Positions 27,254 through 27,664 of a DNA stretch of 34,836 nucleotides are shown here, in pieces. This DNA is from an uncultured Planctomycetales bacterium (lineage in GTDB: Bacteria; Omnitrophota; Gorgyraeia; Zapsychrales; Fredricksoniimonadaceae), in the NCBI GenBank assembly GCA_964400365.1, contig CAYNTZ010000002.1, positions 1 to 34,836 on the forward strand, given 5' to 3'. Below the pieces are notes generated by a model. That model saw only the letters and a program-made list of their open reading frames with translations, was not told the origin of the DNA and searched no databases. The position numbers were made by a program, and so were the translations under genes. The stretch's first letter is position 1. Every line of letters begins with the position of its first letter.

Positions 27254-27664
27254 TTGCATCATACAAAAGTTAAAGCCGATATAGGCCTTTGCAAAGTAAT
27301 AACCGACCTTACTGTTAAAGGTTGTGTGCCTTGTGTTCCATTGTCTGAGCATCAGCCATTTGACCTTGTCGTGGTAACTTCTCAAGGTTCTCTGCTTAGG
27401 GTGCAAGTTAAGTACGCCTCGCTGAGAAAAAATGGCATTATTGAGGTAGGGTACAGGCGAAATTGGGCAGACAGGCACGGAACCCATACGCAAAGGTATT
27501 CGAAAGATGAGTTTGATTATTATGCCATCTATTGCCCAGAGAAAGATGTTGTTTTATACATTCCTAATACTGAGCGGTGTCCTAAGGCAATACGTTTTGA
27601 TAAAACTGCTAATAATCAAAGCCAATCAGTTAAGTGGGCCAAGGATTATTTAACCATTGAATAA
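27254..27664 (+). CDS. PD-(D/E)XK nuclease resembling the intron-encoded homing endonuclease I-Ssp6803I
   Basis: HHTKVKADIGLCKVITDLTVKGCVPCVPLSEHQPFDLVVV..LLRVQVKYAS gives a D...(E/Q)xK catalytic layout in the PF11645-type context. I chose the TTG at 27254, preceded by GGGAG, because the ORF-track start at 27197 lies inside the tRNA 3' exon. Confidence 0.65.
   Translation: MHHTKVKADIGLCKVITDLTVKGCVPCVPLSEHQPFDLVVVTSQGSLLRVQVKYASLRKNGIIEVGYRRNWADRHGTHTQRYSKDEFDYYAIYCPEKDVVLYIPNTERCPKAIRFDKTANNQSQSVKWAKDYLTIE

Follow-up and report, generated by a model that had tools for sequence, protein, structure and literature searches.

The present study deals with a compact arrangement of genes in a stretch of DNA of 34,836 nucleotides (contig CAYNTZ010000002.1 of assembly GCA_964400365.1, from an uncultured bacterium placed in the Omnitrophota), which is referred to here as the window. 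It contains, on the + strand, a tRNA-Arg(UCU) gene (26956 to 27229) that is interrupted by a group I intron, and an open reading frame (ORF) at 27254-27664 that encodes a nuclease of the I-Ssp6803I family. Genes of this family (PF11645) are habitually located inside introns. Here the intron carries no ORF, and the nuclease gene begins 24 nt past the 3' exon of the tRNA. A first-pass annotation, made from the letters of the sequence, had drawn attention to this arrangement, and the analysis described below follows it up by comparison with related loci, which are cited by their L numbers.

The nuclease gene and its family

The ORF, found at the position and on the strand first given for it, encodes 136 amino acids from a TTG start. 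A Shine-Dalgarno sequence, GGGAG, can be read at 27243-27247 (+ strand), 6 nt before the TTG, and its equivalent in the closest relative, L001, is AGGAG. The start of a longer reading, of 155 amino acids from a GTG at 27197, would fall within the tRNA; all homologues have MHHTK as their N-terminus, at the same place as the TTG start of the window.

The proposed membership of the I-Ssp6803I family was borne out by both sequence and fold. The Pfam profile PF11645 (PDDEXK_5) matched the protein with E=1.9e-29 and 102.9 bits, against a cutoff of 26.1, over profile positions 1-136 of 138, and a search of NCBIfam gave no model matching the nuclease ORF. I-Ssp6803I itself (2OST) was the sole significant phmmer match in the PDB (E=7.7e-5), with FDLVVV and RVQVKY of the ORF aligned to YDLVF and KVQVKS of 2OST. 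An AlphaFold2 model built with 31 homologues (pLDDT 88.3, pTM 0.81) had 2OST_A as its top Foldseek match (E=1.5e-8, TM 0.76/0.70, 26% identity), and the next matches, to the unrelated SPARDA nuclease domains and archaeal Hjc, stood at E about 0.03. In the family alignment D9, D37, Q51 and K53 are invariant across 31 homologues and are kept in the window ORF; D37 and Q51-V-K53 pair with the YDLV...QVK segment of 2OST in the sequence alignment, the catalytic roles of these motif residues being taken from the family name and the alignment only. Within the gene, GAGCATCAGCCAT at 27347-27359, which comprises the conserved SEHQP codons, agrees with GAGCAACAGCCTT of the tRNA exon at 11 of 13 positions, a resemblance that is probably due to chance.

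The interrupted tRNA-Arg(UCU) gene and its intron

The spliced fold places the 5' exon of the tRNA, which ends at U34, at 26956-26990 and the 3' exon at 27190-27229; the same 5' exon stands before the intron in more than 80 related loci. The intron of 199 nt (26991-27189, + strand) lies between anticodon positions 34 and 35. Its exact excision joins the exons into a perfect 75-nt tRNA-Arg(tct), and with the intron option switched on ARAGORN reports a split tRNA at this place, its insert being 199 nt long. The Rfam model Intron_gpI (RF00028) matches 26980-27158 over the full model with E=7.4e-4 and 22.6 bits, which is below the gathering score of 50, and the match appears only when a stretch of 301 nt is searched. 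RNAalifold applied to the four closest ORF-less introns gave P1, P2, P3 enclosing P4-P6, P8 and P9/P9a/P9b, that is a group I topology, and P7, the pairing that closes the pseudoknot, was read by hand as GACUUU/AAAGUC. U is the last base of the 5' exon and G the last base of the intron. Read in this way, the intron is complete, from P1 to P9 with the terminal G. A hairpin, P6 (27079-27099), sits where relatives carry their ORF, and no ORF or ORF remnant was found in 26991-27189. The ORF-less intron that had been proposed from the letters is, then, a real one.

Between tRNA and ORF there is a T-rich spacer of 24 nt (27230-27253, + strand), the first 12 nt or so of which resemble, in alignment, the sequence that natively follows the 3' end of the L002 tRNA. 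The statement that the gene lies just downstream of the tRNA and outside the intron was right, and the distance, first given as 26 nt, is corrected to 24; the ORF start is 64 nt from the intron insertion site. Default ARAGORN and Rfam scans (at the gathering score, and at E<=1 on 2.5 kb) detected neither the intron nor the tRNA-Arg, so that routine annotation would list such genomes as having no tRNA-Arg(UCU).

Location of the related genes

A protein search for relatives of the ORF gave 262 matches, and 130 loci were classified. Among the matches listed, identity ranged from 60 to 92%, and all those with an organism name belonged to Candidatus Omnitrophota or Omnitrophica. It was found that the ORF usually lies inside the tRNA-Arg(UCU) intron at position 34/35. 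This was the case in 60 of the 85 loci of the first set, in 25 of 35 metagenome loci and in L128, about 85 loci that are mostly from Omnitrophota. The usual neighbourhood of these loci is a tRNA-Pro / tRNA-Arg / tRNA-His cluster. Introns bearing the ORF measure 608-749 nt (the deleted L073, 482 nt) and are designated here as type 1: the ORF occupies the P6 loop and usually extends 16 codons into the P7-P3'-P8 core, with a conserved tail, RESSETIRHTPEMVKT. In most intron-encoded loci, as at 3409-3459 of L005, the same bases thus serve as ribozyme core and as the coding sequence of this tail. The ORFs of L002 and L128, like the free-standing ones, end before the intron core. L002 holds its ORF, 78% identical to that of the window, within the intron. 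The gene for the GAF-domain protein PtsP (22819-25077 in the window) lies upstream and a Fic/DOC-family gene (27988-29112) downstream of the window tRNA, and PtsP and Fic also flank the tRNA-Arg locus of L002, which makes L002 a true syntenic comparison.

The arrangement with the ORF outside the intron was observed in independent assemblies of at least 6 lineages: the window, L001 (92% identical), L087 and L119, and L125-L127 and L129-L130 (73% each), the outside ORFs being 73-92% identical to the window ORF. Every one of these loci has an ORF-less intron of 193-206 nt with the ORF 7-24 nt past the tRNA (7-16 nt in L087, L119, L125 and L129), and tRNA-His follows 13-90 nt past the ORF stop where the contig reaches so far. 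A type-2 intron, an ACAGC/GCTGT anticodon stem and the position of the ORF are common to all of them.

L054 (1996-2772; 56% identical) offers a second and independent example of a free-standing nuclease gene with an ORF-less intron: its ORF lies 45 nt upstream of a tRNA-Arg(UCU) whose 249-nt ORF-less intron has a type-1-like core. In addition, 19 intact distant relatives (37-46% identical; L057, L061, L064-L066, L068-L072, L074-L076, L079 and L081-L085) are free-standing beside an intronless tRNA-Arg(UCU). Their hosts are Actinomycetota, Chloroflexota, Bacteroidota, Pseudomonadota, Myxococcota and cyanobacteria. Some are placed upstream, overlapping the tRNA or at most 11 nt from it, some are divergent at about 65 nt, and the cyanobacterial ones lie about 75 nt downstream; partial tRNA duplications were looked for at these distant free-standing relatives and none was found. 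Decayed nuclease genes occur both inside and outside introns (L018, L037, L073 and L119), with a premature stop at 50 or 33 amino acids or with internal deletions, and such copies fit the gain-and-decay cycle expected of homing nuclease genes.

A mosaic locus

Comparison of the intron in the window with type-1 introns revealed that the pairing is kept and the sequence is changed. P3 is CGUCG/CGACG in the window and UGUGGC/GCCACA in type 1; for P4 the corresponding pairs are UUCGGUG/CACCGAG and UAUGCAAG/CUUGCAGG, for P7 GACUUU/AAAGUC and GACUAU/AUAGUC, and for P8 GGC/GCC and CACC/GGUG. All ORF-bearing introns of Omnitrophota are within 0-6 edits of a 47-nt type-1 P7-P8 segment, even at about 60% ORF identity, whereas the outside clade is 15-16 edits away from it, with 0-3 edits among its own members. 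In the outside clade the anticodon stem beside the insertion site reads ACAGC/GCTGT, against xCTGC/GCAGx in every type-1 locus. The window tRNA and that of L002 have identical acceptor, D and T arms, and the P9 region of the outside clade hardly differs from that of L002/L128. The closest relative of the type-2 core outside this group is the intron of L063 (Elusimicrobiota), which also has the ACAGC stem.

On these comparisons the resident intron belongs to a different lineage from the intron that carries the ORF. The locus is a mosaic: its ORF and P9 match the L002 type, and its catalytic core and adjoining exon bases derive from another lineage, as would be expected after recombination or co-conversion around the insertion site. 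One and the same intron type, anticodon stem and ORF position are found in tRNA genes with the acceptor stems GTCCCTG, GTCCCCG and GCGCCTG; this could reflect a joint transfer of intron and nuclease gene, or may have come about by vertical descent with compensatory change.

Direction of the change

The first-pass annotation had suggested that the locus may capture a step before or after the insertion of an endonuclease gene into an intron. Of the two, a step after residence in the intron is favoured, with moderate bootstrap values, by the nesting of the free-standing genes within the intron-encoded clade. In neighbour-joining trees of the ORF (300 replicates) the window and L001 were paired in 300 of 300 replicates, and the five intact outside ORFs formed a clade with the inside pair L002/L128 with 69% bootstrap. 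This seven-taxon clade fell at least 2 nodes deep within the intron-encoded clade in 68% of replicates, and the depth of the window/L001 pair below the ingroup root was at least 2 nodes throughout (median ten). As the outside clade is nested within the intron-encoded clade, the free-standing state is, with moderate support, a derived one. L002 and L128 retain standard type-1 junctions on either side of the ORF.

The three subgroups of the seven-taxon clade are almost equidistant, with 69-79% identity and 6 vs 8 informative sites. Since the ORF tree cannot group the outside ORFs, a single exit rests on the common intron and position, the derived characters that the outside loci have in common being intron type, anticodon stem and insertion position. 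A single departure of the ORF from the intron, in an L002-like ancestor, is concluded from these data with moderate support.

Selection and expression

Between the window and L001 the ORF has 36 synonymous and 11 non-synonymous differences (dN 0.036, dS 0.588, dN/dS 0.06), and it is under strong purifying selection. Conservation of the ORF in relatives, for which the first-pass annotation had called for comparative genomics, holds in 5 of 6 outside lineages, where it is intact; in L119 it is disrupted.

In L125 the gene has little room between two tRNA genes (tRNA-Arg ends 12 nt ahead of it and tRNA-His begins 13 nt past it), so it must be co-transcribed with the tRNA operon. The mRNA is presumably released by tRNA processing. 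In the window the operon that holds the ORF is closed by the conserved downstream neighbour tRNA-His (27753-27828, + strand; ARAGORN and Rfam), which is followed by a terminator-like hairpin (27846-27876). A 15-nt inverted repeat (26623-26637 / 27657-27671) around the composite was considered as an element boundary and discarded, as it is at the estimated chance level and is absent from L087.

The upstream GIY-YIG gene

A second, unrelated nuclease gene adjoins the tRNA on its upstream side. This small GIY-YIG gene (26719-27009, + strand) has a core of about 79 amino acids (26719-26955; PF01541, E=1.9e-14), and its frame continues through the 5' exon of the tRNA into the intron. It is preceded by a decayed duplicate of the tRNA-Arg 5' half, positions 1-34 (26644-26718, + strand; direct repeats D1 and D2), which is interrupted by the palindromes CCTGTCTACCGACAGG (26662-26677) and CCTGCCTGCCGGCAGGCAGG (26686-26705). 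In L001, too, the GIY-YIG gene follows a decayed copy of tRNA-Arg 1-34 interrupted by CCTGCCTGCCGGCAGGCAGG. The homologues of the protein are 78-81 amino acids long. It was also considered as an intron endonuclease of the I-TevI type; this was rejected, as the group I intron endonuclease model TIGR01453 gave 18.2 bits against a cutoff of 56 and the protein has the catalytic domain only, no DNA-binding domain being found in it.

The first-pass annotation had taken this gene as one of two unrelated nuclease genes that flank the intron. A role for it as a second partner of the intron did not stand. The GIY-YIG gene recurs as a unit that consists of a 5' tRNA fragment with a conserved palindrome, CCTGCCTGCC(G)GCAGGCAGG, an ORF of about 80 amino acids and an intact copy of the same tRNA. 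The unit was observed in the window (26644-27009), L001 (2413-2760), L112 (17-504), L121, L122 and L123/L124. It is found at tRNA-Arg(CCU) and tRNA-Arg(ACG) in two loci, one of them in Mangrovibacterium marinum (Bacteroidota), at tRNA-Leu(GAG) in Patescibacteria and at tRNA-Arg(UCU) in Omnitrophota. In L112 it lies upstream of a tRNA-Arg(UCU) whose intron still holds the PD-(D/E)XK ORF, and in L087, L119, L125 and L129 the outside ORF is present and the GIY-YIG gene absent. Among 124 loci and the window the palindrome is confined to GIY-YIG loci. This distribution indicates that the GIY-YIG gene is a separate tRNA-associated selfish element and not a partner of the nuclease/intron pair; the two nuclease genes would adjoin because both exploit tRNA genes, not by cooperating. 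Small stand-alone GIY-YIG proteins of about 80 amino acids likewise consist of the catalytic domain, but the window-type gene, unlike them, always comes with the conserved palindrome and the partial tRNA duplication. A literature search limited to open-access papers found no description of such a GIY-YIG/palindrome/tRNA element.

The GIY-YIG ORF appears to use the tRNA's own promoter. A promoter-like site, TTTACA-17-TAGGAT (26592-26620, + strand), lies upstream of the pseudo-tRNA copy and is probably the original tRNA-Arg promoter; the number of hits in the consensus scan was at chance level, and it is the position alone that is suggestive. In L121 (1435-1437) and L122 (1441-1443) the stop codon of the GIY-YIG ORF is formed by the conserved tRNA bases U8-A9-G10 (TAG). 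A one-base shift of the frame in the window (26953-27009), L001 and L112 lets the ORF read via the 5' exon into the intron, which adds 17 residues. The palindrome at 26662-26677 has the form CCTGTC-N4-GACAGG and is located in the D-loop of the pseudo-tRNA. In L112 (52-67) this palindrome sits within the centre of the first one, and L001 lacks it; it resembles a hairpin that inserts independently. The tRNA duplicate of the window ends exactly at the splice site, and a break at the intron site was considered as its origin; the L112 junction lies two bases earlier with a different filler, and the agreement was put down to coincidence at a homologous junction.

Discussion

The data are best explained if the ORF encodes an active homing endonuclease that stands free of the intron, cleaves tRNA-Arg(UCU) genes that are not interrupted, is descended from the intron ORF of this same tRNA and moves together with the linked intron. 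A probability of about 60% is given to this reading, of which we infer the activity, the target, the immunity and the co-mobility. The first-pass annotation had likened the arrangement to collaborative homing, and the comparative data fit this analogy well. The closest relatives lie in an intron at exactly this site, and the target, by homology, would therefore be the uninterrupted anticodon loop. The transcript of the operon would provide the nuclease mRNA, and self-splicing of the intron would yield tRNA-Arg(UCU). In a tRNA-Arg(UCU) gene without the interruption, the nuclease, by homology a tetramer, would bind the DNA of the anticodon stem-loop, a pseudo-palindrome, and cleave it near 34/35. 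The host's own gene would be immune because the intron splits the recognition site. When a cut allele is repaired with this locus as the template, the intron would be copied into it, and the nuclease gene would follow through the co-conversion of some 0.5 kb on the 3' side. Such a scheme would amount to trans or collaborative homing.

A number of observations weigh against this reading. The outside ORF of L119 has an internal deletion and is a pseudogene, so that the gene is dispensable in at least one lineage, and L087, L119 and L125 are without a visible Shine-Dalgarno sequence. The outside ORFs are recovered as one group with only 16% bootstrap, the subgroups forming a near-trichotomy. A relic of the 3' part of a type-1 intron, or a second 3' exon, was sought after the ORF and none was found; nor was any homology found between the flanks of the ORF inside and outside the intron, so that the route by which the ORF moved is not seen. 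Strong purifying selection at a chromosomal locus that looks mostly vertically inherited could, moreover, reflect a function useful to the host.

This last point leads to an alternative that is unlikely but is the best placed of those considered, namely that the nuclease has been domesticated and is kept by selection at the level of the host and not by homing, e.g. for cutting incoming phage or plasmid DNA that bears an uninterrupted tRNA-Arg(UCU) gene, in a restriction-like discrimination of self from non-self with the host copy shielded by its intron, or for another cellular role. The dN/dS of 0.06 would agree with it, as would the persistence of the arrangement across lineages diverged to 73% amino-acid identity, an ORF composition adapted to the host, the intact free-standing relatives beside intronless tRNA-Arg(UCU) in at least five phyla, and the apparent expression of the gene from a housekeeping tRNA operon. 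However, nothing points to defence, no defence-island context being apparent (PADLOC was not run), all members of the family that have been characterised are homing enzymes, and the pseudogenes of L119, L018, L037 and L073 fit the gain and decay of homing nuclease genes.

It is somewhat less probable that the ORF is a stranded remnant, carried out of the intron by rearrangement or by replacement of the intron, with no functional link to it any more, and now decaying. The deletion in L119, the three outside lineages without a Shine-Dalgarno sequence and the different lineages of intron and ORF could be read in this way. A decaying gene is, however, hard to reconcile with an ORF intact in five of six outside lineages, with the excess of synonymous over non-synonymous changes between the window and L001, with the retention of all family-invariant residues and with the gain of a good Shine-Dalgarno sequence in these two loci.

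Phages often encode tRNA-Arg(UCU). It could also be imagined, though we consider it improbable, that intron and nuclease form a restriction-like pair, in which the intron, by splitting the recognition site, marks the only tRNA-Arg(UCU) gene of the host as 'self' and the nuclease is kept by selection for destroying incoming DNA with an uninterrupted copy. If true, this would explain why dN/dS is very low, why the gene has persisted so long outside the intron and why many intact free-standing relatives lie beside tRNA-Arg(UCU) genes in other phyla.

The least likely is the reverse direction, the entry route of the Bonocora and Shub model with a free-standing gene beside an ORF-less intron as the ancestral state and the intron-encoded gene as the derived one: the distant relatives are often free-standing beside tRNA-Arg(UCU), and the ORF tree joins the inside pair L002/L128 to the window and L001 and not outside all free-standing ORFs, but the seven-taxon clade lies several nodes deep among about 50 intron-encoded ORFs, and L002 and L128 have standard type-1 flanks on both sides, so that entry would need an exact re-creation of the junctions.

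The I-Ssp6803I enzyme is tetrameric, and its target, a pseudo-palindrome of 23 bp, lies in the tRNA-fMet gene (PMC3384342; Bonocora and Shub 2001 via PMC3984707). It resembles the window case in Pfam family, in fold, in the aligned D...QxK segment, in the association with a group I intron that splits the anticodon loop of a tRNA gene in bacteria and in a target region that is naturally pseudo-palindromic. It differs in being intron-internal, in tRNA-fMet and in a cyanobacterium, Synechocystis, whereas the window gene is outside the intron, at tRNA-Arg(UCU) and in Omnitrophota. In function, the nearest parallel is collaborative homing, in which a free-standing nuclease acts next to an intron without an ORF and which has been established in phages, at psbA and nrdB (review PMC3984707), the examples being F-CphI by the psbA intron of cyanophage S-PM2 and mobE / I-TevIII at T4 nrdB (Zeng, Bonocora and Shub 2009; Bonocora and Shub 2009; reviewed in PMC3984707). 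There, as in the window, an ORF-less intron is closely linked to a free-standing nuclease whose presumed target is the insertion site. The phage nuclease is an HNH enzyme, however, and the window has a PD-(D/E)XK enzyme, a bacterial chromosome and a tRNA gene; and the phage cases have been read as a pre-adaptation for entry into an intron, whereas the series that includes the window indicates an exit from the intron together with a swap of introns. The intron-encoded PF11645 genes of Omnitrophota (NCBI 'group I intron-associated PD-(D/E)XK endonuclease') share with the window the protein (60-79% identical), the tRNA, the insertion site and the tRNA-Pro/Arg/His neighbourhood, but their place is the P6 loop of type-1 introns, which are highly conserved, and the window gene lies downstream of the tRNA, next to a type-2 core. 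In the open-access literature, no description was found of the Omnitrophota tRNA-Arg(UCU) introns or of free-standing PF11645 genes at tRNA-Arg(UCU).

The joining and parting of homing nucleases and introns has so far been known almost wholly from a few phage cases. At one tRNA gene in bacterial chromosomes, the loci described here form a natural series, with the ORF inside the intron (about 85 loci), downstream of the tRNA (at least 6 lineages), upstream of it (L054) or beside an intronless tRNA (19 loci). This suggests that selection can continue to act on a nuclease gene after it has left its intron, and that one intron can replace another beneath such a gene. The window holds a natural bacterial case in which a homing nuclease and an intron have been separated and probably go on travelling together. 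With an enzyme of 136 amino acids and a ribozyme of 199 nt, it makes 'collaborative homing' directly testable.

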